IMG/VR virus record: IMGVR_UViG_3300037313_001644
Coordinates: 1 to 58,951 of that record
DNA from: a virus
Lineage: Duplodnaviria > Caudoviricetes
Length of the DNA stretch: 58,951 bases
Reading direction: 5' to 3' (one strand)
The notes under the pieces are model-generated. The model saw only the letters and a program-made list of their open reading frames with translations. It had not been told where the DNA came from and did not search any database. This document shows positions 31,685 to 54,751 of this stretch, piece by piece. Each line of letters begins with the position of its first letter. Position 1 is the stretch's first letter. Position numbers and translations under genes: made by a program.

Positions 31685-31828
31685 TCATCGCCGCCCTTTA
31701 AACCTTGGGAACAAACCCCTCTTGCGGCGCCGATGGTCGATAATGCGTCCGACCACTCCGTGCAGAATGTGGATGAGAATCGCACCGAGGATTGCCCCAT
31801 AGATGAGGCCTATCCAAAAGTGGTTCAT
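31685..31828 (-). CDS. Small single-TM protein
   Basis: MNHFWIGLIYGAILGAILIHIL with a basic tail; ATGA overlap. Confidence 0.6.
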   Translation of the reverse strand: MNHFWIGLIYGAILGAILIHILHGVVGRIIDHRRRKRGLFPRFKGRR

Positions 31829-32214
31829 TCGCCGATCACCTCCACGACATCCCAGCCCATGCGCTCCGCGAGCTTCTTCGCGAGCCACGACCATTGCCAG
31901 AACTCCATCGCCTCATGCCATGGAGCGACACCATTGACGGTCGTAAGCGGGATTCTGAGCACATCCCCGATGTCGACCTCGCCCTCGCGATCGCTGCAGC
32001 CGATCGTCGCTGCGAGCCAAGCGCCGTCCTTCAACTCCCACAACTGCAGGCGCGTCCAGCGGGCGCTATTCCTGTGTCCGCCGTCCCGGCGTTCGCGGTC
32101 GCTATCGACTTCCGCGATCAGGCGGCCGGTCCAGCGCACGTCCGGCTTATCCTTGCGCGCTAGGGTGACCTCATGGAGGTTGCGCGCCATATCCACCGGC
32201 TTGCTCTTGGTCAT
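31825..32214 (-). CDS. Hypothetical early protein
   Basis: Starts at the conserved leader GGAAAGGAACGGAC-ATG. Confidence 0.8.
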   Translation of the reverse strand: MTKSKPVDMARNLHEVTLARKDKPDVRWTGRLIAEVDSDRERRDGGHRNSARWTRLQLWELKDGAWLAATIGCSDREGEVDIGDVLRIPLTTVNGVAPWHEAMEFWQWSWLAKKLAERMGWDVVEVIGE

Positions 32215-32228
32215 GTCCGTTCCTTTCC
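32212..32228 (-). promoter_or_regulatory. Start-associated leader repeat, copy 1 (17 nt)
   Basis: GGAAAGGAACGGACATG on the minus strand. Confidence 0.9.
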
Positions 32229-32231
32229 CTT

Positions 32232-32345
32232 TCAGTGCCGCCATCCGGCGACGATGAGCGCGACCACGATAATGCCGCGGATTTCATTCAGCACCAGTAT
32301 CGCGATCGCGATACGCGTGAACTTGCGAGGAAGGTGCAGCCTCAT
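32232..32345 (-). CDS. Small hydrophobic protein
   Basis: 37 aa; ATGA overlap with the ligase stop. Confidence 0.55.
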   Translation of the reverse strand: MRLHLPRKFTRIAIAILVLNEIRGIIVVALIVAGWRH

Positions 32346-33184
32346 CTGAGGTGCCCCTGCCTGAGCTGCCCGGTGTCGGTCCATTCCATCGCCTCGACCT
32401 CGACCGCCTGCCCCGCGACGTAGCAATTGCCACGAAGCGGGGGCGGCACGGCGACGCGCAGCTTGCGGCCCTGATACTCTACCCGCGCCGCGGCGCCATC
32501 CTTCAGCCGCTCGAGATAGGTGCATGTCAGCCGCAGCGTCTGCTTCACCTTGAGCCAGGTCGGCCGCCGCCCACGCACATAAGGCGCGGACGCGTCCTTC
32601 AGCACCATGCCTTCGCCGCCGCGATCCCAGAACCATTGCGCCAGGCGCATCAGGTCTTCGTTTTCCACGATGGAGCGTTGCGGGCTCAGCACGATGCTCT
32701 TGGGCGTCCAGTCGTCGAGCGCCATCTCCATCAGGCCCCGGCGCTCGCTGAGCGGCCGGCTCCACGATCCAGCGCGCCAGTGCTGGAGCGGCACGGCGTC
32801 GAAGAGATGGAAGCGGCCGCACCCCTCGCCTTCGCGGAAGGCCTTCAGGGTCGCGAGGAACCCGCCTGCCTCCTGATACTCGCCGTCGAAGACCATCGGC
32901 ACGCCGAAGCGGTGCTGCAGCCGTTCGAGTTCGGACCTCAGATGCTCGGCGCAGGCGAGCGGCTCGCCTTTGCGGGTGACGATCGCGCCGTCGATCCACA
33001 GCATGCGGATGCCGTCGATCTTCTCTTCCACGACCCAGGGTCCGCCCCTGAGGCCCCGCCCGTTCCACACGCCGGCGAGCTGGCAAAGCTCGGCTGGGCC
33101 ATGAACGAAGCGCGGATCCCGCGGCGGCGGAACGGCCGGACCCAGCGGCGGTGCGTTTGCCATGCCGGAGTAGAGGCCCGTCAT
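32342..33184 (-). CDS. Minimal ATP-dependent DNA ligase
   Basis: Motif I EKIDGIR, III FDGE, IIIa FHLFD, IV EGMVLK, V WLKVK. Confidence 0.9.
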   Translation of the reverse strand: MTGLYSGMANAPPLGPAVPPPRDPRFVHGPAELCQLAGVWNGRGLRGGPWVVEEKIDGIRMLWIDGAIVTRKGEPLACAEHLRSELERLQHRFGVPMVFDGEYQEAGGFLATLKAFREGEGCGRFHLFDAVPLQHWRAGSWSRPLSERRGLMEMALDDWTPKSIVLSPQRSIVENEDLMRLAQWFWDRGGEGMVLKDASAPYVRGRRPTWLKVKQTLRLTCTYLERLKDGAAARVEYQGRKLRVAVPPPLRGNCYVAGQAVEVEAMEWTDTGQLRQGHLR

Positions 33185-33399
33185 TGCACGACCTCAGCGA
33201 TCTTTCGTGGCAATACCCGCGTCCAGTGAGTGATCGCATTGGGCCCGTCGCGCAGCCTCCAATCAAGGTGCTCTGCTGCGTCCGTGCAATCGAGAACACT
33301 ACCGTCGGCGAGCAAGACGACGTTCGCCTCCGTCGCTGCTATGCCGTAGGCGTTCTCCCGCCACGTTGAGCCGAAGGGGAGGCGTGGCAGAACCGTCAT
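33181..33399 (-). CDS. Hypothetical protein
   Basis: ATGA coupling at both ends; ITHW motif. Confidence 0.6.
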   Translation of the reverse strand: MTVLPRLPFGSTWRENAYGIAATEANVVLLADGSVLDCTDAAEHLDWRLRDGPNAITHWTRVLPRKIAEVVQ

Positions 33400-36032
33400 T
33401 GCAGCCTTTCCGTGCCGCCCTGAAGCGACCATACAGGCTGTGCATTCGCACGAAGGGGAGGGGTGAGCTTGATCCGCCCGCCGCTGCGCAGCTCGATCAG
33501 TTCGTTCTCGAGCGCCACGATGCGCGCCTGCTTATCGTCGAGCACGATATTCCAGCGCACGTCGGCGCTGTCCGCCCGTGCGGTCTCCTCAGCAAGCCGC
33601 GCCTGTGCAGCGTCCAGCTGCCGCGCCAGGTCCGCCGCCTTGAACTCCGCATCCTCCGCGCGCCGCGCTTCCGATGCTGCCCGAGAGGCGGCTTTGGCAT
33701 TCTCACGACTGAGGGCGCGCATCCTCAGCGCATGGCGAATTGCCGCCCGCCGCTTGCGCCGTTCGCGGTCCGCCCGATCGTTCGCCGCACGCTGAGCCAG
33801 AAGGTTGTTGCGGTTCATGTCGTGCGCCAGTTCCGTCGCCCGCCGCGCGCCGTCCCGCTGCCGCCTGAGGCGCAGATATGCCCGCACTATCCTCAGCCGC
33901 CGTTCCCGCGTGAAATTGTTGTTGTCAGGCAAATAAGCGGCTGGCGGGGCGACGATTTCTGTTTCCGGTTGCGTTCTACTACTGTTCACAACGGCCTCGA
34001 GCGCCGCGATCCGCGCCGCCATCGCCGCAAGCACCGCGCCGATGTCCTCGCCTGCGGCCTCGAAACCGCCCGCATCGGGCCGCTGAGCCGCCTCAGGCGC
34101 GTTTTCCGCGATGGAGGGCTGTGGGGCAGCCGTTTCCTCGTCCTGCGCTTCTACGGCCATATTTTCGGCCTCAGCGGCGATTTGTGCCGCACGCTGCTCG
34201 GCTGGGAACGGGATTATCGCGGCGGAGGGTTCGTCATCCGCCTCCCCATGCCATCCGCTCAGCCGCATCGCGATATCGGCAATCGCCTCGACCGCCATGC
34301 TTGCCTCGACCGTCGGCCTGGGCTGCAGCGCCGCAATCACGGCGGCCGGATCGGCGGTGTAGGCGTCCATCACCTCGCGGTCCGTCATCCTGCGCCGCTT
34401 GTTCTTCCCGCCGCGTTCCCTTGCCGCAATCGTCATCATCGGTTCGGGCAGCCGCCAGCCTTCGGGCAGGATGCGGCCGTGATGGAAGGTGAGCGGCTTG
34501 ATCTCCACGCGCTCCCAGTCGGCCGGATCGCCGGCGAGGCGCGCAACCGCCGCCGCATCCAGCAGGATCGCGCCGTTCTTCGTCGCCAGCGCGCGTTCGT
34601 CGACGCCGGGTGTTCCTACGGTGACGGCCGCCGCCATGCCAGCGCGCTCGCGCGGCATCGCGACCGAATAGGATCCTTCCTGATAGACATCGCCGCCGAC
34701 GTACCGCGCGACCGTGCGCGTCGTGAACGTCTCGTAATCCGCCTCTTCGACCATCGTATAGCCACAGCGCCCGAACGTCGCGCCGATGACTAGGCCCTCA
34801 CGGATGATAAGGCTTGAGTCGACGATAGTCTCGACGCGCCTAATGCCTTCGGCGCGCTTGCTTGGCCGGTATGTACGCCGCCGCGAATCCCAGATTTGTG
34901 CCTCTTCTGGATATTCAACGCGATCGATCTCGTGCGTGAATTGTGGCAGGCCCGCATCCGTCGCGAGGCCGGTGAGATATTCCAGCGCCTTTTTATGGCC
35001 GTCGTGCGCCATCTCATAGGCATATCCCTTGGGCAGCGCATCCGGCTTCAGCAGCATCGCAAGCGCGCCGAATTCGGGCGCGGCCGGCACGGTGAGATAA
35101 ACGCGGTCTTCCGTCATCTCCACGACGGGGACCGAGCCGAAGGCCTTGCGAACCATTTCCACGGCGGAGACCGGCAGACGTGGCTCGGCCTCCGGCAAGC
35201 CGACGATCTGCATCTCGGCATCATCGGCCGGGATGAGCGACCGCCAGTCAGGGAACGTCCCGTCGATCAGCTTCGCGACCAGGCGCACGGCACCCGCCTC
35301 GATCACCGCACGGTAACCCGTCGTGGCAATCGCGGCCGGACCGTCAAAGCCCTTCAGCGAGCGCCGCAGGATATCGCCGGCCTTGCGGGGCAGGATGGAG
35401 TCCGGCAGCGCTTCCGCACCGGCTGGGATGTCGCGCGTTACCCAGGCGCAGTTGTGACCGTCCAGCGCGGCCAGATAAAACGCGCCGTCGCGCACCTGCA
35501 GCGCCGTTCCCATGAGATAGTAGCGGGTTTCCTCGCGCCCTTCCGCCCATGCGACGTGCGCAAGGTCGGCGAGCAGCTGCGCGGCCGGAAGCGCGAATTC
35601 GGCCGCTTCCTCGCCTTCCTTCGGCTTGATCAGCGGGAAATCGTCGGCAGGCTTGTAAGCGATCTTGCCGCGCGTGCGGCCGGCGACCATTTCCACGGCT
35701 CCGGCGCCGCAGTCGCGCAATTCGAGTTGTGCGCCCTTGTCCGCCTTCTTCACCATGTCCGCGAACGTCGCGGCCGGCAGGCAGAAATGGGCGGGCTGTT
35801 CCCATGTGCACGGCACCTGCAGCGTGAGCTGGACGTCCAGGTCCGTCGCCGTGATTGCCACGGCGGAGGCGTCGGCAGTCGGCTCGAAAAGCAGATACGA
35901 CAGAATCGGGATGGTGTTGCGCCGCTCGACGACGCGGCACAGCAATGCGAGCGCTTCGTGGAGCGCGTTGCGATCGATGGTGAGGCCCAGCGCCGCCTCA
36001 GCGGCGGGAGCCTCGATAGTCTCTTGCTTCAT
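33396..36032 (-). CDS. Beta-clamp-derived protein with a ~600-aa C-terminal extension
   Basis: VVERRNTIPILS, ATDLD, EETRYYLMG, ALDGH and KLIDGTFPDW in the first ~265 aa; remainder unrelated and ends in a coiled coil. Confidence 0.85.
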   Translation of the reverse strand: MKQETIEAPAAEAALGLTIDRNALHEALALLCRVVERRNTIPILSYLLFEPTADASAVAITATDLDVQLTLQVPCTWEQPAHFCLPAATFADMVKKADKGAQLELRDCGAGAVEMVAGRTRGKIAYKPADDFPLIKPKEGEEAAEFALPAAQLLADLAHVAWAEGREETRYYLMGTALQVRDGAFYLAALDGHNCAWVTRDIPAGAEALPDSILPRKAGDILRRSLKGFDGPAAIATTGYRAVIEAGAVRLVAKLIDGTFPDWRSLIPADDAEMQIVGLPEAEPRLPVSAVEMVRKAFGSVPVVEMTEDRVYLTVPAAPEFGALAMLLKPDALPKGYAYEMAHDGHKKALEYLTGLATDAGLPQFTHEIDRVEYPEEAQIWDSRRRTYRPSKRAEGIRRVETIVDSSLIIREGLVIGATFGRCGYTMVEEADYETFTTRTVARYVGGDVYQEGSYSVAMPRERAGMAAAVTVGTPGVDERALATKNGAILLDAAAVARLAGDPADWERVEIKPLTFHHGRILPEGWRLPEPMMTIAARERGGKNKRRRMTDREVMDAYTADPAAVIAALQPRPTVEASMAVEAIADIAMRLSGWHGEADDEPSAAIIPFPAEQRAAQIAAEAENMAVEAQDEETAAPQPSIAENAPEAAQRPDAGGFEAAGEDIGAVLAAMAARIAALEAVVNSSRTQPETEIVAPPAAYLPDNNNFTRERRLRIVRAYLRLRRQRDGARRATELAHDMNRNNLLAQRAANDRADRERRKRRAAIRHALRMRALSRENAKAASRAASEARRAEDAEFKAADLARQLDAAQARLAEETARADSADVRWNIVLDDKQARIVALENELIELRSGGRIKLTPPLRANAQPVWSLQGGTERLQ

Positions 36033-36049
36033 GTCCGTTCCTTTCCGTT
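36030..36049 (-). promoter_or_regulatory. Start-associated leader repeat, copy 2
   Basis: AACGGAAAGGAACGGACATG. Confidence 0.9.
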
Positions 36050-36146
36050 CGGGGCTGCCTCTTCAGTGCCGCCGAGCCCAACGGCGGCAGACGCACGGCC
36101 GGTGCTATCCCGTGGAAGAGGGACAGCATCGGCCGGCGTTTCGGCT

Positions 36147-36302
36147 TTAGGTACGCCGCGTCTCCGCGCCCTCGATCAGCATCCACAGCGCCAGCACAAG
36201 CGCGGGTGCGGCGAGCATGGGCAGCGGCTGCAGCCAGTCTGGGGCGGATCCGCAGCCGAGCGAAACGGCAACGGCAATGCCGATGCAAAGCGCGCGGCGC
36301 AT
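36147..36302 (-). CDS. Small membrane protein
   Basis: Two hydrophobic segments; starts right after the upstream stop. Confidence 0.55.
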   Translation of the reverse strand: MRRALCIGIAVAVSLGCGSAPDWLQPLPMLAAPALVLALWMLIEGAETRRT

Positions 36303-36303
36303 C

Positions 36304-36915
36304 TCAGGCCGCCTCGCTCGCTTTGTGCGCTTTGAGCATCGCCGCCGCGCTCGACTCATAAGGACCTATGATCCTGAGCAAGCCAGCGAGCGCTGCCTCT
36401 TCACACAGGTCACCTTTATCGAGGCGAGAGAAGAGTTGTTCTACGCGGCGCGTCTGTTCCCGCGCCAAAAGCCATTCAGCCTTCGCCGCTTCGTCGCGGT
36501 TCTTAAACGTGGGCTGCTTGTCGAAAGGCCGGAGATCGCAAGCGATGCGCCACTTGCGGTCCTCATAGTTGTTTGAGACGCATCCGCAGGCACCCGTTGG
36601 ATAGGTTACATTGTGAACATACCAACCGCCGTGCCGCCAGCGTGAATAATCAAACCGCTCTGGTGGCTGCTCAGGATCTTGCAAGGCTTCGTCGCAAATC
36701 TCCTCGCCATCGGCGCTGTCTAAGAACAGGTGGGGGTCCAGTGGCTCGGTATCGGCGAATCCGGCGCCGTTCTGGATAGTTACGATCTCCGCATCAATCG
36801 CGCGCCAGGCATCAGCTTTGGCAATGCGCTCTGCCTCTTCCGCTGTGTCGGCTTCGATCTCGCGTTTGATGAAGCGGCGCACGTTGAACGAATAGGTAGC
36901 CTCGTATTTTGCCAT
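36304..36915 (-). CDS. Hypothetical early protein
   Basis: RBS GGAGG; IEADTAEEAERIA motif; GACGCVSNNY segment. Confidence 0.75.
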   Translation of the reverse strand: MAKYEATYSFNVRRFIKREIEADTAEEAERIAKADAWRAIDAEIVTIQNGAGFADTEPLDPHLFLDSADGEEICDEALQDPEQPPERFDYSRWRHGGWYVHNVTYPTGACGCVSNNYEDRKWRIACDLRPFDKQPTFKNRDEAAKAEWLLAREQTRRVEQLFSRLDKGDLCEEAALAGLLRIIGPYESSAAAMLKAHKASEAA

Positions 36916-36918
36916 GGC

Positions 36919-37641
36919 TCAGGCCTCCACTTCGTCGACAAGGTGGCAAAGCGCGCCGCACTCGGGGCATTCACCCGCGGGCATGATCTCGCCAGGTGCA
37001 ACGCGCTGTGGCAGACTCACGATCTCGCCGCAGTCGCGCTCGCGGCCGGTCCAGGCGCAGTCGGCGCACGCGACGCGCGGCGACTCTTCCTCTTGGGCCC
37101 TCAGCTCGCGATCCTTTGCCGCGATAGAGGCCGCCTTGGCGCGTGCATATTCAATCGCCAGATGATCGATCAGCGATGAAGGCCGCGCCGTGTGCCGTTG
37201 CGGGCGCTTCGGCCGGTCGCGCTCAGCGTAGAGAGTTAGCAGCGTGATTAGCTCAGACGTTTCAGGCGTCGCCGAGCCGAGCACCTTTAGCACGCCGCGC
37301 ACGGCTTCCAGGCTTCCCGTTGCAGCGTCCAGCGCTTCGCCTAGAGCACTTTCGAGCGCGAAGAGCCGCAGCGTTTCCGCTGATAGAGGCTCAGCATCGG
37401 CCGGGATCAGATGATGCGCCGGCCAATCGTCGCCATCGCGGTCCGTAAAAAGCGGAGCGGCAACGATCATCTGAGTCGTCGAGGTATCCCAAAAGACCTC
37501 CGACTCACCGTTATGAACATAAGCATTTGTTGCCGTGGGATCCGACGCGATGAACGTGCAGCTGGCGGCGCTCGCGATAAGCTCCGACGTGCCCTGCAGT
37601 TCGGCGCCAGTTGGCGCGATAAAGTCGAATTGCTCTTTCAT
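36919..37641 (-). CDS. Hypothetical early protein with a C-terminal Zn-finger
   Basis: Starts at the leader repeat; CADC...CPECG. Confidence 0.75.
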   Translation of the reverse strand: MKEQFDFIAPTGAELQGTSELIASAASCTFIASDPTATNAYVHNGESEVFWDTSTTQMIVAAPLFTDRDGDDWPAHHLIPADAEPLSAETLRLFALESALGEALDAATGSLEAVRGVLKVLGSATPETSELITLLTLYAERDRPKRPQRHTARPSSLIDHLAIEYARAKAASIAAKDRELRAQEEESPRVACADCAWTGRERDCGEIVSLPQRVAPGEIMPAGECPECGALCHLVDEVEA

Positions 37642-37658
37642 GTCCGTTCCTTTCCGTT
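37639..37658 (-). promoter_or_regulatory. Start-associated leader repeat, copy 3
   Basis: AACGGAAAGGAACGGACATG. Confidence 0.9.
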
Positions 37659-37742
37659 TCGTTCGTTGATTGCTACGGCTCAGGCTTCCGCCGCTATTGC
37701 GGCAAAGGGTACGCGGGAGAGTCGGAATTGGTCGCACCAGGT

Positions 37743-38006
37743 CTAGGCCAGCCGGATTGTCGGCGCGTTGAGGCGCGCCGATGCTTCGCGAACTCGCTCC
37801 TCATAGCGCGCTTGCGATAGCTTGCCGGCATTGAACGCGACGGCGCGACTAACGGCCGTAGGATCGAAATAAGGCGCGCCATCCATGCGCGCGACAGGCG
37901 CAAGCGCGCTAATGATCGATTGCGCCAGGCGAGTCCCTTCCTCGCCCCAGCCTAGAGACTGGCGCGCCATGTGGAGCGCCATCGTTTCACTAACTGCCAT
38001 ATCCAT
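37743..38006 (-). CDS. Hypothetical early protein
   Basis: RBS AAGGGAG before the ATG at 38006. Confidence 0.6.
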   Translation of the reverse strand: MDMAVSETMALHMARQSLGWGEEGTRLAQSIISALAPVARMDGAPYFDPTAVSRAVAFNAGKLSQARYEERVREASARLNAPTIRLA

Positions 38007-38019
38007 GAGAGAGACTCCC

Positions 38020-38385
38020 TTAGAATTCATCGTTTGGGGTGAGGCGATGCGCCAAGCGCGCGCGGAATCGCCAATCGACGGACGACTCCCGCACAATCAC
38101 GCGCGGATTGCCGTTAACCTTGGCGGCCGTCTGGATTGCGGCGAGCTGATAATCAGCGCCCCATTTGCGGCCGAGTCCATAGTGCGGCGCATGGCGCATG
38201 ATGCGCCGATCCAACGCGCGGCCGAATTGTTGCCGTATCTCAGCGCCAGTTGTCGGCCACCAGGATTCTAGGCCTTCGCGGAATGTCGCTTCCGGCTGCG
38301 CCTTGGCGCGCTTCACGGCCGCGACATAAGCGGGAATCGAGATGCGACGATCCAGCGCCGGCAGCGTGATGCAACGGCGCGTCAT
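38020..38385 (-). CDS. Hypothetical early protein
   Basis: ATGA overlap with the upstream gene. Confidence 0.7.
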   Translation of the reverse strand: MTRRCITLPALDRRISIPAYVAAVKRAKAQPEATFREGLESWWPTTGAEIRQQFGRALDRRIMRHAPHYGLGRKWGADYQLAAIQTAAKVNGNPRVIVRESSVDWRFRARLAHRLTPNDEF

Positions 38386-39080
38386 TTCGCCAGCCTTTCG
38401 CCTCGCATGAAGGCGACATAACGCCGCGCGGACTCTTCCGTTTTGAAGCGCGCGTGAATCTTGCCGTCATGGGTTACGGCAGCGCCATATTCCGGCATGT
38501 CGGAGTCCACCGTCTGCCAGTCGCCGACATTGAAAGCCGGATGGCGATAGAGCCAACGGCCCGGCGCCGTCATGATTCCGACTACGCACGAGTCCAGGAT
38601 GGCAAACCCGCCGTGCGAGCGCGCGTTCGCTATCAGCAACGGCACGCGCATTGGGCCCATGCTACGGCTAATCGTACCGGCAACGTCGAATTCTTCGGGC
38701 CATGCGCGGCCGGTCTTAGTGTCTCCACAGAATAGGCGGACTCGCCATCCGTTAAGGCGCGCATTCTCCAGCGCGCGCCGTACCGCTTCCGGAGTCTTGG
38801 GATCGAACCATGTTTCCGTCATTGCCGGCGCGCGCGCAAAGGCGGCCGCTGTTGCCTCATACTGTTGAAACCGTTCAGCTGTACCGATTGGCGCCGGATG
38901 ATCGAACGGTAACGCAATGCCGTGCCGCTGCAGGTGCGCGGCATAGCCGGCAATGCGCGACTCTAGAACGTCGAACCCTAGGCACGAATAGCCGTTGCCT
39001 TCCTTCAGCGAATAAAGGCGCGTTTCGGCATTGATGCTATGCAAGCGCGTTGCCCGTTCGATTGTCTCAGTGTTTGGCAT
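38382..39080 (-). CDS. Hypothetical early protein
   Basis: Starts at the leader repeat; RVRLFCGDTKTGRAWPEE...GTISRSMG segment. Confidence 0.8.
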   Translation of the reverse strand: MPNTETIERATRLHSINAETRLYSLKEGNGYSCLGFDVLESRIAGYAAHLQRHGIALPFDHPAPIGTAERFQQYEATAAAFARAPAMTETWFDPKTPEAVRRALENARLNGWRVRLFCGDTKTGRAWPEEFDVAGTISRSMGPMRVPLLIANARSHGGFAILDSCVVGIMTAPGRWLYRHPAFNVGDWQTVDSDMPEYGAAVTHDGKIHARFKTEESARRYVAFMRGERLAK

Positions 39081-39097
39081 GTCCGTTCCTTTCCGTT
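39078..39097 (-). promoter_or_regulatory. Start-associated leader repeat, copy 4
   Basis: AACGGAAAGGAACGGACATG. Confidence 0.9.
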
Positions 39098-39167
39098 GTT
39101 GGCCTGTTGCCATCATCGGCGCCGCGCGCTTGGGAGCTGGAGCGCGCGGCGCTCTTGGGGCGACAGT

Positions 39168-39404
39168 CTAGCGGCGCCGTGCACCCCCCTTCTGTGACCG
39201 CTTGGCAGCGCCTGCGCAGGCAATGAGAAGCGTACCGACAATCACCCCGCAGACGGCCATCCATGCCAGCATGAGGAGACCGACGGTTGAGGCTTCAGCT
39301 GGAAGCTCAGCCGCACGCGCCAGGACAACGGGAATAGAGGAAGCCACTAGCACCGATAGGACAAAGCAAACGGCGCCATAGGCGAAGAGGAAAGCGCGCC
39401 CCAT
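39168..39404 (-). CDS. Two-TM small membrane protein
   Basis: Two hydrophobic helices; TAATG coupling. Confidence 0.7.
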   Translation of the reverse strand: MGRAFLFAYGAVCFVLSVLVASSIPVVLARAAELPAEASTVGLLMLAWMAVCGVIVGTLLIACAGAAKRSQKGGARRR

Positions 39405-39583
39405 TAGCGGCGCTCCTCTGCCATGTGCGGGAAATGCAAGCGGTGAAGCTCAGCCGTCGCGCTATCCAGCTCTAGCAATGCGTCGAGCGAAGCGGTTTCA
39501 TTGAGGACCATCCGCGCCTTGCGCGCTCTGCGCTGCGCAATGCGGACCCGCTCTGAATGAGGGATACCAAACCTAGTCGCCAT
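39404..39583 (-). CDS. First gene of the early block, small basic helical protein
   Basis: Starts at leader repeat copy 5. Confidence 0.75.
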   Translation of the reverse strand: MATRFGIPHSERVRIAQRRARKARMVLNETASLDALLELDSATAELHRLHFPHMAEERR

Positions 39584-39600
39584 GTCCGTTCCTTTCCGTT
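39581..39600 (-). promoter_or_regulatory. Start-associated leader repeat, copy 5
   Basis: AACGGAAAGGAACGGACATG. Confidence 0.9.
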
Positions 39601-39659
39601 CCAGCCGACTCGCTGTTTCCCGAGTCGCTAGCAGCGCATACCAAAAAACGCACAACAGC

Positions 39660-39975: not shown

Positions 39976-40052
39976 CGCGGGGTGGACCAGCCTGGTAGGT
40001 CGCCTGGCTCATAACCAGGAAGTCGCCGGTTCGAATCCGGCCCCCGCCACCA
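39976..40052 (+). tRNA. tRNA-fMet-like (CAT) with encoded CCA
   Basis: 77-nt cloverleaf; anticodon arm CCTGG-CTCATAA-CCAGG; TTCGAAT T-loop; C1xC72 mismatch and A11-U24 initiator features. Confidence 0.95.
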
Positions 40053-40178: not shown

Positions 40179-40217
40179 CGAGGCGGCGGTGGGCAATCAC
40201 CGTCGCCTCGTTCGTTT
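40179..40217 (+). terminator. Terminator between the tRNA transcript and the convergent operon
   Basis: CGAGGCGGCGGTG...CACCGTCGCCTCG followed by TTCGTTT. Confidence 0.7.
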
Positions 40218-40968: not shown

Positions 40969-41327
40969 CAGAAGATCAGGCGCTCGATGCCGCCGGCGCG
41001 GATCGTGGCCCACTCGTCGCCGCGGGCGGCCTTCCAGATGACGAACACGCGGCTCCAGTCGGGCATCGGCTTGTTGTGCTCGCCCAGTATGGCCTCGATC
41101 TTCTCTTTCGCCGTCTGCGGGACGAAATGGTCGATCGAGAAGCGCGGCTGACATCCCATGCACGCAGCCTTGGGCACCTCGATGCGGTAGGCGAGCGCCT
41201 GCCCCGGCAGCCGTGAGTGCGTGCCGAACGTGATCACCGGATAATGGGTGCCGGGATTGCGGCAGGTCGGGTTGAAGCAGATGACGCTGTGCTCGACGCC
41301 ATTTGCCGCGGGGATACTCTGGGTCAT
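40968..41327 (-). CDS. Hypothetical Zn-binding protein
   Basis: CFNPTC...CMGC; coupled at both ends. Confidence 0.65.
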   Translation of the reverse strand: MTQSIPAANGVEHSVICFNPTCRNPGTHYPVITFGTHSRLPGQALAYRIEVPKAACMGCQPRFSIDHFVPQTAKEKIEAILGEHNKPMPDWSRVFVIWKAARGDEWATIRAGGIERLIF

Positions 41328-42424
41328 CAGTGCCTCACGAAGGTGATGGTGCGGTTGGTCTGCATGCAAAGGCCGCAGTTGGCGCAGCAGCGCGTTGCGT
41401 CGGTCTCGGCGGGGCAGCGGATCCCCGTCGCCTGCTCGGGCGCGTCGACGACCTCGGCGCAGTCGGTCGGGTAGCCGCCGCCGCTGATCCGCATGGCGAC
41501 GCGGTCGTAGAAGTCGCGCATCAGCTCGAGCACCGCGCGGCCGATCGGGTCGGAGGGGAGGCGTGCGGTGAAGCCGAAGATGCGCAGGTTGGGGAAGCGC
41601 TCGAGCATCTCGCGCCAGAACCCGACATAGGCGACGGAGTAGAAGTCGCCGAGGACGTGCAGGCGAACGATGAAGCCCTTGGGGTGGATGAAGGCGAGAT
41701 GCAGCAGCTCGCTCGTCAGCCTGAGCGTCAGCGTCCCGTCATCATGGATGCGGTGCGCCATGTGCATGTTGTTGCCGTAGCAGGTCGCCCATTGGAGGCA
41801 CGTCCTGGGGCAGGTCTCGCGCTCTTCGAGCGTGAGGGTGTAGAGCGGCATTCCGGACCAGCGGCCCTTCACCATCTGCTTGCCGATCTTGCGGCTATTC
41901 TCGCCGGACTTGAGCAGACGCTCGACGTGCGCCGCCGGCACGACGGTCGAGGGGAAGATCGTCGCGCCTTCGCGCAGGGCGGGATGGTGAGGCGGCAGGT
42001 CGACGCGTGGACCGTCGTGATTGACGATGCCGGTGAAGCGCCTTTGCTTCGCTTCGCGGTCGGATGGCGGCCGCTGCCAGCGCTTACGTCCGGTGCCGCC
42101 GCCGCGGCGCGGCGGAAGGCCCATCTGGTGCACCTTGCCGTAGATCGAGCTGGGGCCCTTCTTGCCCAGCACATCGGCAATCGCGTCGGCCGACATGCCG
42201 GCATTCCACATCTTCTCGAGCTCAACGCGCTCCTCCGGCGACCAGCGTTCGCGGGTGCGGCGCGGCGCACGGAAGTGCGAGACGTTCTCCGTCATCGGCC
42301 AGTCGGCGTTCACCGCGCCGGTCCTCTGCGCAGCGATCCTCGCCTTGGCGCGCTCGCTCGCCGCTCGTCGACGCTCTTCCGACCAGGGCGTATAGCGGTA
42401 CTCGGGGTGACCCATGGAGCGCAT
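41327..42424 (-). CDS. GcrA-like HTH fused to a Gp88-like Cys-rich domain
   Basis: WSPEERVELEKMWNAGMSADAIADVLG...GKVHQMGL; TCPRTC...CY, RLHVLGDF and CPAE...CANCGLC. Confidence 0.8.
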   Translation of the reverse strand: MRSMGHPEYRYTPWSEERRRAASERAKARIAAQRTGAVNADWPMTENVSHFRAPRRTRERWSPEERVELEKMWNAGMSADAIADVLGKKGPSSIYGKVHQMGLPPRRGGGTGRKRWQRPPSDREAKQRRFTGIVNHDGPRVDLPPHHPALREGATIFPSTVVPAAHVERLLKSGENSRKIGKQMVKGRWSGMPLYTLTLEERETCPRTCLQWATCYGNNMHMAHRIHDDGTLTLRLTSELLHLAFIHPKGFIVRLHVLGDFYSVAYVGFWREMLERFPNLRIFGFTARLPSDPIGRAVLELMRDFYDRVAMRISGGGYPTDCAEVVDAPEQATGIRCPAETDATRCCANCGLCMQTNRTITFVRH

Positions 42425-42431
42425 GCGGTCC

Positions 42432-43376
42432 TCACGCCGGATAGCCGTTGTGTTCGACGCCATCGAGGAGGCGTCCAGCGGCCTTCTTGCCGATGCGCCT
42501 CATGGGTATTGAGCCGGATGCCCATTCGATGCCGCTCTCGATCGGCACCATCCGCCCGTCGGGTTCGACGAAGTGCGTCGGTCCGTCCCGATCAGGTGAG
42601 TAGTTGGCGCGCCAGTCACCCCATTGCTTGAACAGGAATGGCACCCCCGCGGCGGCGCATTGGTCGCGCAACGAGCGCGCCCAAGCTGGATGCATCGGCC
42701 GTGCGCCCGGCCCACTCTCACCACCGACCACGACCCAGTCGACTTGCTTTAACCAGCGCGAAATGTCGACATGGCCCAACAGGGGTTCACAACTCAGCCA
42801 GCGCACCGCCGGCGTCGTCTCGAGCAGGATCGGGATGCGCTCGTCGGCGCGCTTCTGGTCCTCGACGCTCGTCCCGAGCCAGACGTTAGGCAGCGGCCAG
42901 GGCCCCTCCATGATCCGGTCGAAGGATGTCGTGCCCGCCTTCTCCCATATGACCTCGAGGGCGGTGCCGCGGCCATCGCTCCGTTCGCGCGACTGGTCGG
43001 TGAGGTACTTCCGCGCCCGCTCTGGGCGTTTCGTCAGCACTTGGAACGTGTGCTGCGGTGCCATCTTCATCACGGCGAAGACGAGGTCGATCCAACCGCT
43101 CGGCACGTTCTCATGGAACAGGTCGCCGTCGGCGCAGACGAAAATCTTGCGCGGTCGTTTGAGACGGATCGGCTCGAGCAGGACCTTCTCGTTGAACCGC
43201 ACCTCGCCAGTCCACACCATGCCGCCCGCGGTGCGTGTCGTGAGGCCCTGGCGAACTGGGAAGCGGTGCGCCTGCTTCATCGCGTAGCAGTGCTTGCAGC
43301 CCGGCGAGACGACCGTGCAGCCGTTCACGACGTTCCACGTCATGTCGGTCCATTCGATCTTCGTGCCGTCAGCCAT
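42432..43376 (-). CDS. DUF5131 / Gp37-Gp68 family protein
   Basis: TKIEWTD.TWN...GCTVVSPGCKHCYA, LTKRPER, SCEPLLG, VGGESG and FKQWG motifs. Confidence 0.95.
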   Translation of the reverse strand: MADGTKIEWTDMTWNVVNGCTVVSPGCKHCYAMKQAHRFPVRQGLTTRTAGGMVWTGEVRFNEKVLLEPIRLKRPRKIFVCADGDLFHENVPSGWIDLVFAVMKMAPQHTFQVLTKRPERARKYLTDQSRERSDGRGTALEVIWEKAGTTSFDRIMEGPWPLPNVWLGTSVEDQKRADERIPILLETTPAVRWLSCEPLLGHVDISRWLKQVDWVVVGGESGPGARPMHPAWARSLRDQCAAAGVPFLFKQWGDWRANYSPDRDGPTHFVEPDGRMVPIESGIEWASGSIPMRRIGKKAAGRLLDGVEHNGYPA

Positions 43377-48492: not shown

Positions 48493-48716
48493 GACGCATT
48501 CTCCGCGCTGCGCTCGACCATCTGCTTCAGCCAGTCGCGCTCGGCTTCCGTGGTGGAGAGCCGCTGGCGCAGGATCCGGTTGTCCTCACGCTCCTTGCGG
48601 AGGAAGGCGCGGCTCAGCCAGTGCGCATGCTGCTCGCGGCGGATGACCACCGCGAACGCCGCTGTCGAAAACAGCATCACCAGCGAGATGACCAAGGCAA
48701 AGGCGGTGTCGGTCAT
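48489..48716 (-). CDS. TM plus coiled-coil small protein
   Basis: Hydrophobic N terminus; coupled at both ends. Confidence 0.65.
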   Translation of the reverse strand: MTDTAFALVISLVMLFSTAAFAVVIRREQHAHWLSRAFLRKEREDNRILRQRLSTTEAERDWLKQMVERSAENAS

Positions 48717-49858
48717 CAGACGCGCATCGGCATCAGGACGGCGAGGAAATCATCATCGCCATCGAAGGTTATCTTGATCGGCGAAGCTGCGGTCGCGTCC
48801 GAGAAGTGGAAATGCACGGTCGCTCCGACGTGCGTTGCAAGAATCTCGGCGAGATAGGCGGCGTTCACACCGAACATTTCGGGCGCTTCGCCCTCAACCT
48901 GGACCGAGAGCTTGCGCTCGAACTTCAGGCCTTCGGGGTTGGTGAAGCTCAGACCTTCGGACAGTTTGATGGCTGCGGGATTGACTGAGGAGGTGCCGAG
49001 CCGGGCGATGGTCTTCAGTCCCGCCGCCAGATCGCCGCTCGACAGCGCGGCGGAGCCAACGAACTTGTCGGGGATGACACGGCTATAGTCAGGATAAGTC
49101 CCATCGATGCACTTCGCCTCCAGCGTCCAATTCTCGACGGCGAAGCTTGCGCGGAGACGTGAGACCTCCATGATAATTGGCGCATCCATGCGATCGAGCA
49201 ATTCGATCAGGCAGCGGATGCCCTGCCTCGAAATGATGACCTCGGGCATTTCGCCGTCCGCGACGGCCGGGCTAATCACCTTCTGATGGAGCCGGTGACC
49301 ATCCGTCGCCGTGAATGCGATACGGCCGCCCCTGTGGGTGAGGCAGATGCCGTTCAGATAATAGCGCGTCTCTTCGCGGGATATTGCGGGGCGCACCGTC
49401 GAAACGGCCTGCAGAAGCGCCCGCCGATCGAACTCGAAAGTCGCCTCGGGCGAAGGACGTGTAATGGTTGGATATTCGCAGGCCTGAAATGCGGAGATGG
49501 CGAACTCACCAGCAGTGCTTCGCAGGATCAGCTGCTTGGGAGACGAGAAGAAGGCGATCCGCTCGCCGCCGATTGACTCGGCCGCGGCGCGCAGCGTGTG
49601 GCACGGAACGCAGGTTTCGAACGCAATGCCATCGAACGGCAACTTGCAGGTGAGCTGCTGATCGAGGTCGGTGCCGCTGATCACAAGGTTGCCCGGCGCG
49701 GCGACAAGCCGCACGCATTGGAGAATGGACACCGTCGAGCGACGGTCGATCACGAAATTGAACACGCTGAGCGCCTCGGCGAGCTGGGTGCCGGTGAGCG
49801 GCGACTCGGCGACGGTGGCGGGCTTCTCTTCGACAAGAGTGGCGGACGTCTTGGGCAT
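48716..49858 (-). CDS. dnaN: DNA polymerase III beta sliding clamp homolog (three domains)
   Basis: GTDLD, EETRYYLNG, ATDGHRL, IDGTYPDYSRVIP and VLMPMRV motifs. Confidence 0.92.
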   Translation of the reverse strand: MPKTSATLVEEKPATVAESPLTGTQLAEALSVFNFVIDRRSTVSILQCVRLVAAPGNLVISGTDLDQQLTCKLPFDGIAFETCVPCHTLRAAAESIGGERIAFFSSPKQLILRSTAGEFAISAFQACEYPTITRPSPEATFEFDRRALLQAVSTVRPAISREETRYYLNGICLTHRGGRIAFTATDGHRLHQKVISPAVADGEMPEVIISRQGIRCLIELLDRMDAPIIMEVSRLRASFAVENWTLEAKCIDGTYPDYSRVIPDKFVGSAALSSGDLAAGLKTIARLGTSSVNPAAIKLSEGLSFTNPEGLKFERKLSVQVEGEAPEMFGVNAAYLAEILATHVGATVHFHFSDATAASPIKITFDGDDDFLAVLMPMRV

Positions 49859-50728: not shown

Positions 50729-50953
50729 ATGCGAACAGTCCGCGACATCATCGAAGACCTGGGCGGCTCGAGCGCCGTCGCCAAGGCCCACAATCCCCCC
50801 TTGGCACAGTCGACGGTGCACGGCTGGGTGACCTCCAACTTCGTCCCCAGGTGGCGCGTGCCGGCGCTTCTCGAAATCGCCAAGTCGCTCGGCAAGTCAT
50901 TGGCAGAGAACGATTTTCCGCCAAAGGACCAGCGCCTGAAGGCGGTCGGCTGA
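50729..50953 (+). CDS. Cro-like HTH regulator
   Basis: DIIEDLGG..AVAKA...STVHGW...VP pattern. Confidence 0.85.
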   Translation: MRTVRDIIEDLGGSSAVAKAHNPPLAQSTVHGWVTSNFVPRWRVPALLEIAKSLGKSLAENDFPPKDQRLKAVG

Positions 50954-51152
50954 TGGAGCGCAGCAACGCCGCCGCACGCGCCGCCGCGGCGCTGCCCTGT
51001 CCCGGATCGGCACGGCCCGCTGGGGCTGTTCCGAAGCGGGAAACGGCCAACAAAAAAAATGTTGGAAATGCGGGGAATTTGGGCAGTCCGCGAACCCAAT
51101 CGGGCGCGGATTGCGGGCCGCGACTCGGGCGCCGCTCTCCCGAGTCGCGGCC

Positions 51153-52526
51153 GTGAGCGTCGAGGTCGTCCACGGCGACTGCCGGCAGGTGCTCGCATCC
51201 CGCAGCGGCGAACTCTTCGACAGCTGCGTCACCGATCCGCCCTACCATCTGACGAGCATCATAAAGCGCTTCGGCGCTGAGAATGCGAAGCCGGCACTAT
51301 CGGCGAGCCAGCGGCGCTTCGCCAAGACAGGAGGCGCTGACCGCAAGCCTGGGCCTGACCAATACGGTCGGCTTTCGCGCGGCTTCATGGGGCAGACGTG
51401 GGATGGCGGCACGGTCGCGTTCGAGCCCGAGACATGGCGCGCCGTCTATGACCATCTCAAGCCCGGCGCGCATCTCGTCGCGTTCGGGGGATCGCGCAAC
51501 TTCCATCGCCTGATCTGCGCGATCGAGGATGCGGGATTCGAGATCCGCGACACGCTGTTCTGGCTGTACGGCTCGGGCTTTCCCAAGTCGCACAACGTCG
51601 AGAAGGCCATCGACAGGCTTCTCGGTGCCGAGCGACCGGTCGTCGGCACCGAGAAGCTCTCCAACGACATCCGCGGCGGCGGCTTCCTCGACGTCGTCAA
51701 TGGCGACAAGCCGGCGTTTGAGCGCGACGTGACGGTCGCTGGCTCCGCGGAAGCGGCGCAATGGAGCGGCTGGGGAACGGCGCTGAAGCCGGCCTTCGAG
51801 CCGATCTGCCTCGCCCGCAAGCCAGTCGAAGGGTCCGTCGCCCAGAACGTGCTCAAGTACGGCACCGGCGCGCTCAACATCGATGCGTGCCGCGTTGCCG
51901 TCGAGGATGAACAATATGCCCGCAACTGTTCGGGCGATCGCGGCCACGCGGACAATCGGTCGCGCGACATGGACTTCGCCATGGGTTGCGGCACGGCAAG
52001 CGACAAAGGCCGCTGGCCGGCGAACATCCTCACGGACGGCAGCAAGGCCGTAGAGGCGCTGTTTCCGGAGCAGAGCGGCGGCGGAACGCCCGCTCGCCGC
52101 GATTCCGATAAGTTCCGCAACGTCTATGGCGACTTCAAGGGCGGTGAAGCCGAGCAGGGCATCGCCGGATCGTCGGGCAATGCCGCCCGCTTCTTCTTCT
52201 CCGCCAAGGCTGGCGATCTCGACCGTCTCGGCAGCCAGCACGCCACCATCAAGCCCGTCGACCTGATGCGCTGGCTCTGCAGCCTCGTCACGCCGCCGGG
52301 CGGGCGCGTGCTCGACCCGTTCGCCGGATCGGGGACGACGGCCATCGCCGCACAGGCCGAAGGCTTCGACTGCACGCTCATCGAACTCGAAGCGAAGCAC
52401 GTCGAGGACATCAACCGCCGCCTCGCCATCGTCAGCGGCGAAGGCCGGCACCGGCTGGTCGAGATCAACGCCAACAAGAAGCGCGCGGGCAAGCCGCTGC
52501 CTCTGTTCGGCGAGGACGCGGCATGA
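51153..52526 (+). CDS. Amino (N6A/N4C) DNA methyltransferase, beta class
   Basis: TDPPY and HATIKP...DPFAGSGTT motifs. Confidence 0.92.
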   Translation: MSVEVVHGDCRQVLASRSGELFDSCVTDPPYHLTSIIKRFGAENAKPALSASQRRFAKTGGADRKPGPDQYGRLSRGFMGQTWDGGTVAFEPETWRAVYDHLKPGAHLVAFGGSRNFHRLICAIEDAGFEIRDTLFWLYGSGFPKSHNVEKAIDRLLGAERPVVGTEKLSNDIRGGGFLDVVNGDKPAFERDVTVAGSAEAAQWSGWGTALKPAFEPICLARKPVEGSVAQNVLKYGTGALNIDACRVAVEDEQYARNCSGDRGHADNRSRDMDFAMGCGTASDKGRWPANILTDGSKAVEALFPEQSGGGTPARRDSDKFRNVYGDFKGGEAEQGIAGSSGNAARFFFSAKAGDLDRLGSQHATIKPVDLMRWLCSLVTPPGGRVLDPFAGSGTTAIAAQAEGFDCTLIELEAKHVEDINRRLAIVSGEGRHRLVEINANKKRAGKPLPLFGEDAA

Positions 52527-52858
52527 TCGTCAGCCATTTCGACTTCCGCCGCGCGCCCGAGCGCTTCGCCTGGACGCCGGCGCGCATCTCCAAGCTGTGC
52601 GAGCGCTACGGCGACAGCGAGACCTTCGCCCATATCGCGAGCGAGCTCGGCTGCACGCGCTCCGCCGCGATCGGGCGCTTCAACCGCTTGCGCGGCGAGG
52701 CCGACATGCTGCTCATGGGGCGCCACGACGATCTCGTCCTGATGCTCGAGGACGACCGCGATCTCGACGGCATCGCCGCCGCGCTGCGCGTGCCGATCGC
52801 CGCCGTCGAGGTGCGCTTTGCCGAAATCCGCCGCGGGCTGGGTCCGCAGGCGCGCTGA
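52523..52858 (+). CDS. GcrA N-terminal-like HTH protein
   Basis: WTPARISKL...IASELGCTRSAAIGRFNRL. Confidence 0.75.
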   Translation: MIVSHFDFRRAPERFAWTPARISKLCERYGDSETFAHIASELGCTRSAAIGRFNRLRGEADMLLMGRHDDLVLMLEDDRDLDGIAAALRVPIAAVEVRFAEIRRGLGPQAR

Positions 52859-52872
52859 GGAAGGAGAGGGAC

Positions 52873-53421
52873 ATGGCCGTCAATGGTGTCTTCGACAGGG
52901 AGCAGCTGAAGCTGTTCTTCGACCGCATCGACAACATCGAAGAGGAGATCGCGGGGCTCAAGGACGACCTCAAGGACGTCTGGAAGGAGGCGAAGGCCGC
53001 CGGCTTCGACGCCAACACCATGAAGCGCGTCCGCGTCCTGATGAAGATGGACAAGGACGTGCGCGAGGAGAAGGAGTCGCTCTACGAGGCCTACAAGGAA
53101 GCGCTCGGCCTCCGCTTCGAGTCCACGCCGCTCGGTGCAACGGTCACGGGCGACGGTTCCGGAAAGGCGCTGCCGCCTGCATCCGACGAAGTGCGGACAG
53201 CGCCTGGCGTCACCGACGAAGAGTGGGAGAACGCGCCCCCCAAAGGCCCGATCAGCAACAGCATGTCATCCATTCCGGGGGTTGAGGATTCGGGCTTGTC
53301 TCCAGCGCCTGAGCCGAAGAAGCGCGGGCGGCCGAAGAAGGTGCGCGATCCGTCGAACGGCGCGCTCGTCACGGTGCCCGCGAACGGCGCGGACACCATC
53401 ACGGACAGCGCGGCAGGCTGA
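52873..53421 (+). CDS. gapR: GapR / DUF2312 family nucleoid protein with a C-terminal extension
   Basis: QLKLFFDRIDNIEEE...KDVWKEAKAAGFD...YKEALG; AT-hook-like KKRGRPKK. Confidence 0.85.
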   Translation: MAVNGVFDREQLKLFFDRIDNIEEEIAGLKDDLKDVWKEAKAAGFDANTMKRVRVLMKMDKDVREEKESLYEAYKEALGLRFESTPLGATVTGDGSGKALPPASDEVRTAPGVTDEEWENAPPKGPISNSMSSIPGVEDSGLSPAPEPKKRGRPKKVRDPSNGALVTVPANGADTITDSAAG

Positions 53422-53972
53422 TGTACCTCGCGCTCAAGCCGGGAGCGCGGTGCGGGTGGGCCGCATGGTCGCCGGGCGATCCTCGGCCGGCCTGCGGCTC
53501 ATTCGACATGCCTTCCGAGCTGGGGCGCGCCGGCTGCAGGATGCACGCCTGGCTGGTCGAATTGAGGCAGGTGCATCCCTTCGACCTCCTCGCCTACGAG
53601 CAGCCGAGCGGTCCGACCGAGGCGACCGGCGACCGGCATCTCGCCGACATCGCCATGACCTTCGGCATCGCCGCCCACATCGAGAGCTATTGCTGCCACA
53701 CCGGCGTGCACTGCCGCCGCGTCGGCCTCGGCGCATGGCGGCGCACGTTCCTCGGCAAGGGCGTCGGCGAGAAGACGAAGACGATGGACGGCTGGCTGAA
53801 CAGCCGTATCGGCGAGCTCGGGCTGTGGCGCGCGCGCAAGCGCGAGGAGAAGGCCGCGGTCGGGCTGCTCGATCACCTGATCATCCTCGAGATGAAGCAC
53901 ACGCCGCCATGGCGCACCCATGACTTCGTCGACCTCCAGGCGCCGGTTGCTGCGGCCGGAGGTTTGCGATGA
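53421..53972 (+). CDS. RuvC-like protein, possibly inactive
   Basis: LALKPG..CGWA, LAYEQP and WRRTFLGKG patterns. Confidence 0.65.
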   Translation: MYLALKPGARCGWAAWSPGDPRPACGSFDMPSELGRAGCRMHAWLVELRQVHPFDLLAYEQPSGPTEATGDRHLADIAMTFGIAAHIESYCCHTGVHCRRVGLGAWRRTFLGKGVGEKTKTMDGWLNSRIGELGLWRARKREEKAAVGLLDHLIILEMKHTPPWRTHDFVDLQAPVAAAGGLR

Positions 53973-54259
53973 GCGAATGGCAGGTCGGTGATCTGGCCCT
54001 GTGCATCAAGTCCGGCACGGTGACCCGCGAGGGAGCGATCTACACCGTCACGGAGATTTGGCCGGTCGGTGCGCTCAGGTTTGGGTTCGTGCGCAACGTT
54101 GCAGATGTTCCGCTGCTGATCTTCGCCGAAGTTATCTGCGAGGATGGCGACGGATCCCACCCGAGCCGCTTCCGCAGAATCAGGCGCGACAGGCACGAGT
54201 CCTGCGAGCCTGAGTTCGTTGCCCTCCTGAAGAGCAGCAAGCCGAAGGTGAGCACATGA
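53969..54259 (+). CDS. Hypothetical protein
   Basis: WQVGDLALCI...G.IYTV...RFRRI. Confidence 0.7.
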   Translation: MSEWQVGDLALCIKSGTVTREGAIYTVTEIWPVGALRFGFVRNVADVPLLIFAEVICEDGDGSHPSRFRRIRRDRHESCEPEFVALLKSSKPKVST

Positions 54260-54750: not shown

Positions 54751-54751
54751 G

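Follow-up and report, generated by a model that had tools for sequence, protein, structure and literature searches.

The virus record IMGVR_UViG_3300037313_001644 is complete, with 58,951 bp and direct terminal repeats of 127 bp; it was analyzed over its whole length and is hereafter called the window. The subject here is a 17-nt leader of the sequence AACGGAAAGGAACGGAC, which runs directly into the ATG of five genes, at all five of its copies. Four copies are exact (36033–36049, 37642–37658, 39081–39097, and 39584–39600), and the fifth (32215–32231) carries a single mismatch, AAGGG in place of AACGG. With up to three mismatches allowed and both strands searched, these five are the only matches, all on the minus strand and all between 32.2 and 39.6 kb (forward 0, reverse 5 for the whole record), and the reversed pattern used as a control gives none. 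Dinucleotide-preserving shuffling gives an expectation of 0.09 matches, and five were reached in 0 of 100 shuffles; the leader is far beyond chance. An earlier reading of the letters alone—the sequence-only reading—had reported an identical leader of 17–20 nt fused to the start codons of five genes that it took to be early, and had seen the element nowhere else in the genome. Its coordinates are right throughout, and no further site turns up within three mismatches.

Leader copies and gene groups

All five sites lie in one contiguous block downstream of a tRNA-Met gene, and the genes behind them are non-structural and transcribed leftward; the structural block (1–31.4 kb) bears zero copies. 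Along the minus strand, the block reads hairpin, leader, g1, and g2; gap, leader, g3, g4, and g5; gap, leader, g6, g7, and g8; gap, leader, g9, g10, g11, and g12; and finally leader and g13. Copy 1 together with its ATG (39581–39600, exact) opens g1 (39404–39583, start at 39583), the first gene past the divergent tRNA region, which encodes an arginine-rich protein of 59 aa without family match. Copy 2 (39078–39097, exact) follows an 87-nt gap and opens g3 (38382–39080, start at 39080; 232 aa). Copy 3 (37639–37658, exact), after a gap of 101 nt, opens g6 (36919–37641, start at 37641; 240 aa), a group head without counterpart in the relative described below. Copy 4 (36030–36049, exact), after 114 nt, opens g9 (33396–36032, start at 36032), whose 878 aa comprise the N-terminal and central domains of a beta clamp and a long tail; the same group holds an ATP-dependent ligase (g11). 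Copy 5 (32212–32231, 16 of 17 positions, AAGGG) opens g13 (31825–32214, start at 32214; 129 aa) 17 nt past the stop of g12, a codon that overlaps the 5′ end of this leader copy.

The leader ATGs are the real starts. The homologues of g1, g9, and g13 in the relative start from this ATG too, and for g3, an in-frame ATG 36 nt upstream of the start is out of frame in the relative. The internal coupled gene g10 bears the 5′ half of the leader in its ribosome site (33400–33413, minus strand), where ACGGAAAGG is followed by 5 nt and the ATG.

AACGGA occurs twice in the leader, 10 nt apart, and three ANGGA pentamers are present—both can be read directly from the sequence, as had been claimed; in the fifth copy, the first AACGGA is imperfect. 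The leader also is, as the sequence-only reading had it, more extended than a Shine–Dalgarno site, and it is more conserved than such a site needs. A repeat finder ranked the leader first by size among the direct-repeat families of the region, without common sequence beyond it, and the upstream hairpins form no shared family.

The gaps before the leaders measure about 392, 87, 101, and 114 nt at four sites, each gap containing a stable hairpin, and 17 nt at the fifth. Within the groups, each stop codon overlaps or almost adjoins the next start (ATGA, TAATG). With coupling inside the groups and gaps between them, the leader hence sits beyond the reach of coupled ribosomes in four of the five cases. 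Group-head genes upstream of the tRNA bear other ribosome sites and not the leader. The leader block downstream of the tRNA is probably a single transcription unit. No sigma-70-like promoter was found between 31,400 and 40,400 (1.3 expected), terminator-like sites in the same region number 7 (7.1 expected), and none of the four gaps contains a U-tract terminator on the gene strand.

The core in a diverged relative

One relative of the phage was found, which is about 70% identical to the window—66 to 90% in patches—and collinear with it. An exact scan of viral contigs gave eight copies of the 17-mer, two of them 800 bp apart in the contig of this relative (G001); the latter continues as a second contig (G411, locus L022), and one contig from another run spans both. 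Searches for further relatives returned none by megablast of the region against isolated phages, none by tblastn with a 399-aa protein of the structural block (14589–15788), distant clamp matches below 60% identity by tblastn with g9, and the same relative and nothing else when viral contigs were scanned three times with proteins or profiles. Contigs from four soil or rhizosphere DNA runs contain the phage of the window at low depth and the type of the relative at higher depth, with no new arrangement.

The relative has four leader sites, all on the gene strand. The exact 17-mer and ATG stand before its g1 homologue and before an unrelated gene named X1. Before the g9 homologue, a 13-nt core, GAAAGGAACGGAC, is followed by one extra A and then the ATG; before the g13 homologue, the same core is preceded by AGCA and followed by the ATG. 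Across the four orthologous junctions, core and ATG are identical at 64 of 64 positions, with the one inserted base, and the flanks are identical at 95 of 165 columns over 40 nt upstream and at 85 of 160 over 40 nt downstream (53–58%). The g13 junction has an intact core between two flanks that essentially cannot be aligned. Counting both phages, the core is invariant at nine of nine sites, including its spacer ACGGAC, and the ATG follows at all nine, 0 nt away at eight and 1 nt away at one. Just two of the three ANGGA pentamers are kept across these nine sites. Selection on the core, or its repeated homogenization, finds its strongest support in this intact sequence between flanks that are 53–58% identical or unalignable. 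The 5′ AACG of the leader, on the other hand, is dispensable, since it is missing at two of the four sites in the relative.

The gene content around the leaders differs between the two phages. By protein comparison, the relative reads g1′, g2′, g7′, hairpin and leader, X1, X2, g8′, X3, hairpins and leader, and g9′, where g2′ shows no similarity, g7′ is 61% identical in its N-terminal domain, g8′ 61%, and g9′ 55%. At the second junction, homology spans the hairpin, the linker, and the motif (86% over 86 nt) and stops at the ATG; beyond it, the window has g3–g5 and the relative X1–X2, and the same motif thus stands before non-homologous genes.

This replacement bears on the proposal that the repeat mainly offers short homology for cassette swaps between coinfecting phages, as has been proposed for the PeSL cassettes of T4-type phages. 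The sequence-only reading had raised such recombination joints as a means to shuffle anti-defence cassettes, and had suggested to compare breaks in gene content with the motif. One break does fall exactly at the ATG behind the motif, with the 86% identity directly upstream of it, and the unrelated flanks of the g13 junction fit a joint as well; moreover, the stretch of 36–40 kb, whose gene content differs from that of the relative, is lower in G+C (0.62, compared with 0.65–0.71 over most of the genome). However, the opposite ends of the same rearrangements lie away from the motif: the g3–g5/X1–X2 replacement has its left boundary at the motif and its right boundary at an ordinary gene start, and the other mapped boundaries (g2′/g7′ and X2/g8′, where g7 and g8 start) are ordinary borders between genes that lack it. 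The motif hence coincides with some mosaic boundaries and not with all. A homology of 17–20 nt is also short, Pfam scans of the phage open reading frames (ORFs) turned up none of the Erf, RecT, or Red-beta recombinases, and a pure joint would need neither the exact position of the ATG nor a single orientation. No listed contig joins two motif copies of one phage—the joints listed are the gene order of the relative or a misplaced repeat—which is a weak argument, as contigs drop rare forms. Taken together, recombination as the main role of the repeat is improbable, and the replacement of genes at the leader would be a consequence of the shared sequence rather than its purpose. As for the anti-defence role, the unnamed genes have no match in NCBIfam or PADLOC that would give them a defence or anti-defence label, and there is no evidence for it.

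The hairpins upstream of the leaders form a second layer of conservation. The one before copy 1 (39606–39627, minus strand, as all that follow) lies 5 nt upstream and consists of a 7-bp stem and a GGAAACAG loop, of which the stem and GGAAA are kept in the relative. Before copy 2, a fold with a 12-bp GC stem and a 10-nt loop is predicted 21 nt upstream (39119–39152). All 12 of its pairs are kept in the relative, 8 of them altered on both sides, compared with 4.0 such double changes in shuffles and a count as high in 3 of 500 shuffles; one altered pair is a U-G, which is workable on the sense strand only. Pairs kept through double changes, including this sense-strand U-G, point to a hairpin that acts as an RNA structure, in a comparison of two sequences. 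Two hairpins are predicted before copy 4 (36067–36139, with stems at about 36093–36139 and at 36067–36089). The second of these keeps its TTGGGCT loop in the relative with an altered stem, which in our own reading still pairs there, in a register shifted by an indel.

Ribosome loading and possible readers

As a proxy for the 3′ tail of the host's 16S rRNA, we used the 16S gene of one alphaproteobacterial genome, which reads ...GATCACCTCCTTT, with CT after it. The GGAAAGGA of the leader pairs with this tail at −10.9 to −11.0 kcal/mol, which places the leaders at ranks 9–13 of 54 gene starts, a set that is partly heuristic. Several other genes of the phage pair more strongly; since the leader duplex is strong and yet not the strongest of the genome, Shine–Dalgarno strength alone leaves the identity of the leaders unexplained. 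The mean unpaired probability of the motif is 0.64–0.75 at four sites of the window and 0.38 at g6. By these predictions, the leader is a good and mostly open ribosome site, and neither property would account for its fixed six-base spacer.

We consider the leader to be a start-associated sequence (SAS), with a probability of roughly 60%: ribosomes would load de novo at the heads of coupled gene groups, and the core would be under an additional sequence-specific constraint. The leader would then act in cis, as a stretch of mRNA at which ribosomes are loaded onto the first gene of each coupled group within one leftward operon. GGAAAGGA would pair over 8 bp (including one G-U) with the 16S tail ending in CCUCCUUUCU, 6 nt before the AUG; the purine-rich leader would tend to stay unpaired, and ribosomes that are unable to couple across the hairpin might start afresh. 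The core, including the spacer ACGGAC, is probably also read by something specific—a protein, an RNA, or an initiation complex with strict demands—because ACGGAC and the whole core are fixed though unable to pair with the rRNA. Such specific reading would place the gene groups under shared translational control.

Several points weigh against this reading. The comparison is based on two phages, and exchange among copies or among phages could keep the copies identical in place of selection. The loss of AACG at two of the four sites in the relative and the 7-nt spacer at one of them mean that the requirement for the full leader is not absolute. The predicted accessibility is mixed, with the 0.38 at g6 and with 0.32, 0.73, 0.51, and 0.49 in the relative, and the 16S tail comes from a proxy genome and may not be that of the host. 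No RNA-binding family was found among 79 phage ORFs (23 + 56), no CsrA in six frames of the phage, and no match for g1 in a protein atlas. Finally, core and ATG form a single ordinary start in many unrelated genomes and are thus able to function as no more than a ribosome site.

This last point emerges from the occurrence of the string elsewhere. Of 401 alphaproteobacterial genomes sampled, 11 contain a single match to the leader with up to one mismatch and none contains two, and the reversed control matches in 4; in this sample the motif is rare. GGAAAGGAACGGACATG is found singly in at least 120 genome loci of many phyla. Among the matches listed, an ORF of at least 50 aa follows in 98 of 120, the three bases before the string are random, and a second near copy is absent from every locus. 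Single copies of the 20-mer stand in 13 metagenome stretches without real similarity to the phage, four unrelated viral records (G002–G005) hold single copies of the 17-mer and no second, and the 16-mer GAAAGGAACGGACATG is present in at least 118 viral stretches. The string is usable as a start site anywhere; special here is its repeated and invariant use in one operon.

The leader might accordingly be thought of as only a good ribosome site that was duplicated or carried along with gene groups, and whose identity reflects recent copying or exchange. Besides the apparent working starts in unrelated genomes, the strong duplex with the 16S tail speaks for this explanation, as do the searches of the 79 ORFs and of six frames for CsrA, which found no reader, and the variation of the 5′ four bases and of the spacer length in the relative. 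It does not fit easily with the 64 of 64 identical positions between two phages whose flanks have diverged to 53–58% or, at g13, beyond alignment. Further, the copies are sharply bounded, with no leftover flanking similarity from a duplication, and the other group-head genes of the phage use different sites of equal or greater strength. We regard simple copying as rather unlikely.

Single readers that act on the ribosome sites of many mRNAs are established: RegA of phage T4 represses translation, RegB cleaves at GGAG, and CsrA/RsmA binds sites with A(N)GGA. The three ANGGA pentamers of the leader presumably resemble CsrA sites. Unlike in those systems, no RegA, RegB, or CsrA family match appeared in the phage, and just two of its ANGGA pentamers persist across the nine sites; of 81 alphaproteobacterial genomes sampled, 16 encode a CsrA. 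That a dedicated translational regulator acts in trans on the 13-nt core as its operator is a doubtful though possible extension of the start-associated reading. The regulator could be the small, arginine-rich protein encoded by g1 (the gene that bears the first leader), a host protein similar to CsrA, or a small RNA; the gene groups would form a regulon whose members are exchangeable at the operator with control kept. The sequence-only reading had put forward a regulon bound by an RNA-binding protein, for which the 79 ORFs and the six-frame CsrA search gave no candidate family. A mirror-image RNA was also considered and rejected: the sole 11-nt stretch complementary to the leader, at its 3′ part, falls within a late structural gene (14906–14916, plus strand), has a chance expectation of about 0.28, and is not kept in the relative.

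A dedicated initiation system had been raised as well, on account of a variant initiator tRNA about 400 bp away. The tRNA-Met (39976–40052, plus strand) indeed lies 376 nt from the nearest leader, divergent from g1 on the opposite strand, and keeps its position in the relative (L020, about 3884–3960, plus strand). It bears the anticodon CAU, A11:U24, and an anticodon stem of CCUGG/CCAGG, compared with UCAGG/CCUGA in the initiator tRNAs of five alphaproteobacterial genomes. Its 29:41 pair is U29:A41 where those genomes have A29:U41, in both cases next to two G-C pairs, and a non-G-C pair at this position is the pattern of the host class; the phage tRNA is of the initiator type. The 1:72 mismatch is C-C in the window, C-U in the relative, and C-A in the five genomes. 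For a tRNA working specifically on leader-bearing genes, one can point to its type, its short and conserved distance, and this nonstandard mismatch. Against that stand its place on the opposite strand and the anticodon, A11:U24, and 29:41 pattern as in the five alphaproteobacterial initiators. An initiator tRNA contacts only the start codon and reads AUG whatever the leader. Nothing but proximity links the tRNA to the leader, and we give a dedicated initiation system hardly any credence. On the plus strand, 127 nt past the tRNA, a 14-bp hairpin is followed by a T-rich run (40179–40210), which likely ends the tRNA transcript and bounds the leftward block upstream.

Related phage systems and the surrounding genome

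The SAS of the cluster K mycobacteriophages had been named as an analogue in the sequence-only reading. In the accessible part of its 2011 description, the SAS is an asymmetric 13-bp repeat confined to the non-structural half and located 3–7 bp from starts, with ATG at 80 of 93 sites and upstream gaps above 50 bp (Pope et al. 2011, PMC3203893). It combines an AGGAG core with conserved bases unable to pair with rRNA, is absent from the host, and is conserved before genes of different families, and its conservation was judged to go beyond a favourable ribosome site. Later papers, in the parts available, still call its role unknown or in need of experiments.

As far as these sources go, the analogy fits feature by feature. 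The leader is likewise short and asymmetric, has one orientation and several copies within a few nucleotides of mostly ATG starts, and is found in the non-structural part only, in most cases where a wide gap precedes the gene. It likewise joins a Shine–Dalgarno core to conserved bases that do not pair, is rare outside its phage group, and is conserved before different families in related phages—here in one relative. By this analogy, the leader would be a further case of start-associated sequences. The sequence differs (GGGATAGGAGCCC in cluster K), as do the copy number (5 and 4 here, 11–19 there) and the host phylum. In cluster K, moreover, a shared and non-covarying imperfect inverted repeat of 17 bp accompanies the SAS, and these extended upstream elements are placed at SigA-like promoters, at least in the accessible text. 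The leaders of the window instead have site-specific hairpins, with clear RNA covariation in one of them, and the region showed no promoter.

The promoters of cluster K would also favour a DNA-level role, in which the leader serves as a direct repeat of the form AACGGA-N4-AACGGA, spaced by one helical turn, for a transcription factor or a phage promoter. The 10-bp period can be read from the sequence. Yet the first AACGGA is missing at two of the four sites in the relative and it is the ATG-proximal part that is invariant, every copy is on the coding strand and adjoins an ATG, and the count of sigma-70-like promoters in the region is zero against an expected 1.3. A promoter ending at the ATG would in addition yield a leaderless mRNA that does not itself contain the conserved sequence. 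We therefore deem a DNA-level site very improbable, and return to the leader as a start-associated sequence in the mRNA.

Three further systems invite comparison. Microbacterium phages of cluster EF have ten copies of GGGAAAGGACCCC at the positions of ribosome sites, according to the available part of the report (PMC7302621). The GGAAAGGA centre, able to pair with the 16S tail, is common to both motifs, whereas the EF motif has GGG...CCCC flanks, actinobacterial hosts, and a weakly conserved GTAGAG element upstream. The 26-bp repeat upstream of eight genes of Citrobacter phage Mordin was called reminiscent of SAS (PMC4611695), and it shares with the leader its link to starts in a phage of a Gram-negative host. 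It is unrelated in sequence and length, and Mordin is a lytic Felix O1-like myovirus, described in the accessible text without comparative analysis. The PeSL cassettes of T4-type phages carry early promoters and terminators and take part in transcription and in recombination and shuffling, as stated in the accessible part of Arbiol et al. (2010, PMC2839356). Like the leaders, they are repeated modules with stem-loops between accessory genes where the content of relatives differs; the four gaps of the window differ from them in having no promoter consensus and no U-tract terminator, and the repeat is here a ribosome site.

The system of the window is small—five sites in one operon—and comparison with its diverged relative resolves three layers: a core that is invariant, covarying hairpins, and swappable genes. 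Its host group is genetically tractable, which makes it a convenient place to look for a specific reader of such leaders. With such a reader, phages would possess a general means of giving new genes a ready-made and jointly controlled translation; without one, the leader would be an ordinary strong ribosome site that is reused. The PeSL cassettes are reportedly also the subject of work by Comeau et al. from 2014.

Around the leader block, the genome is organized in three parts. From 1 to about 31.4 kb, the plus strand encodes a lambda-like head and tail (gpA terminase, gpW, lambda-type portal, S49 protease, gpD, and gpE). From 31.6 to 50.6 kb, the minus strand encodes a CI-like repressor, a beta clamp, a large serine recombinase, a C5 methylase, and DUF5131, followed by the tRNA-Met on the opposite strand and then by the leader block. 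From 50.7 to 58.9 kb, the plus strand encodes an N6 methylase and GcrA-like, GapR-like, and DnaA-like proteins. The phage is temperate, given a gene set that includes the CI-like repressor and the large serine recombinase. We infer an alphaproteobacterial host from the GcrA and GapR domains, the form of the tRNA, and the distant clamp matches, which come from phages of Rhizobium, Sinorhizobium, Aurantimonas, Paracoccus, and Caulobacter. The public runs containing the phage sequence are soil and rhizosphere DNA metagenomes; none listed is RNA.

Some minor observations remain. Two genes are clamp-like: one (48716–49858, minus strand; 380 aa) encodes a full three-domain beta clamp, and the other is g9 (33396–36032, minus strand), where a tail of about 600 aa of no known family is fused to two clamp domains. 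About 80 of the 118 listed viral matches to GAAAGGAACGGACATG (L157–L274) come from a single unrelated family, mostly of small contigs, in which the 16-mer is conserved before a single gene starting MPAIVTASQLR, with varying third-codon positions nearby. The layout of g1 behind its GGAAA-loop hairpin (39404–39627, minus strand) recalls, as we take it, that of lambda N and nutL. Homologues of alphaproteobacterial cell-cycle and chromosome proteins lie at 50729–57758 on the plus strand and at 41327–42463 on the minus strand; this set comprises GcrA-like domains in two genes, a GapR-like DNA-binding domain, and N6 and C5 DNA methylases, and the DnaA-like parts are an ATPase, a helix-turn-helix, and an N-terminal domain.

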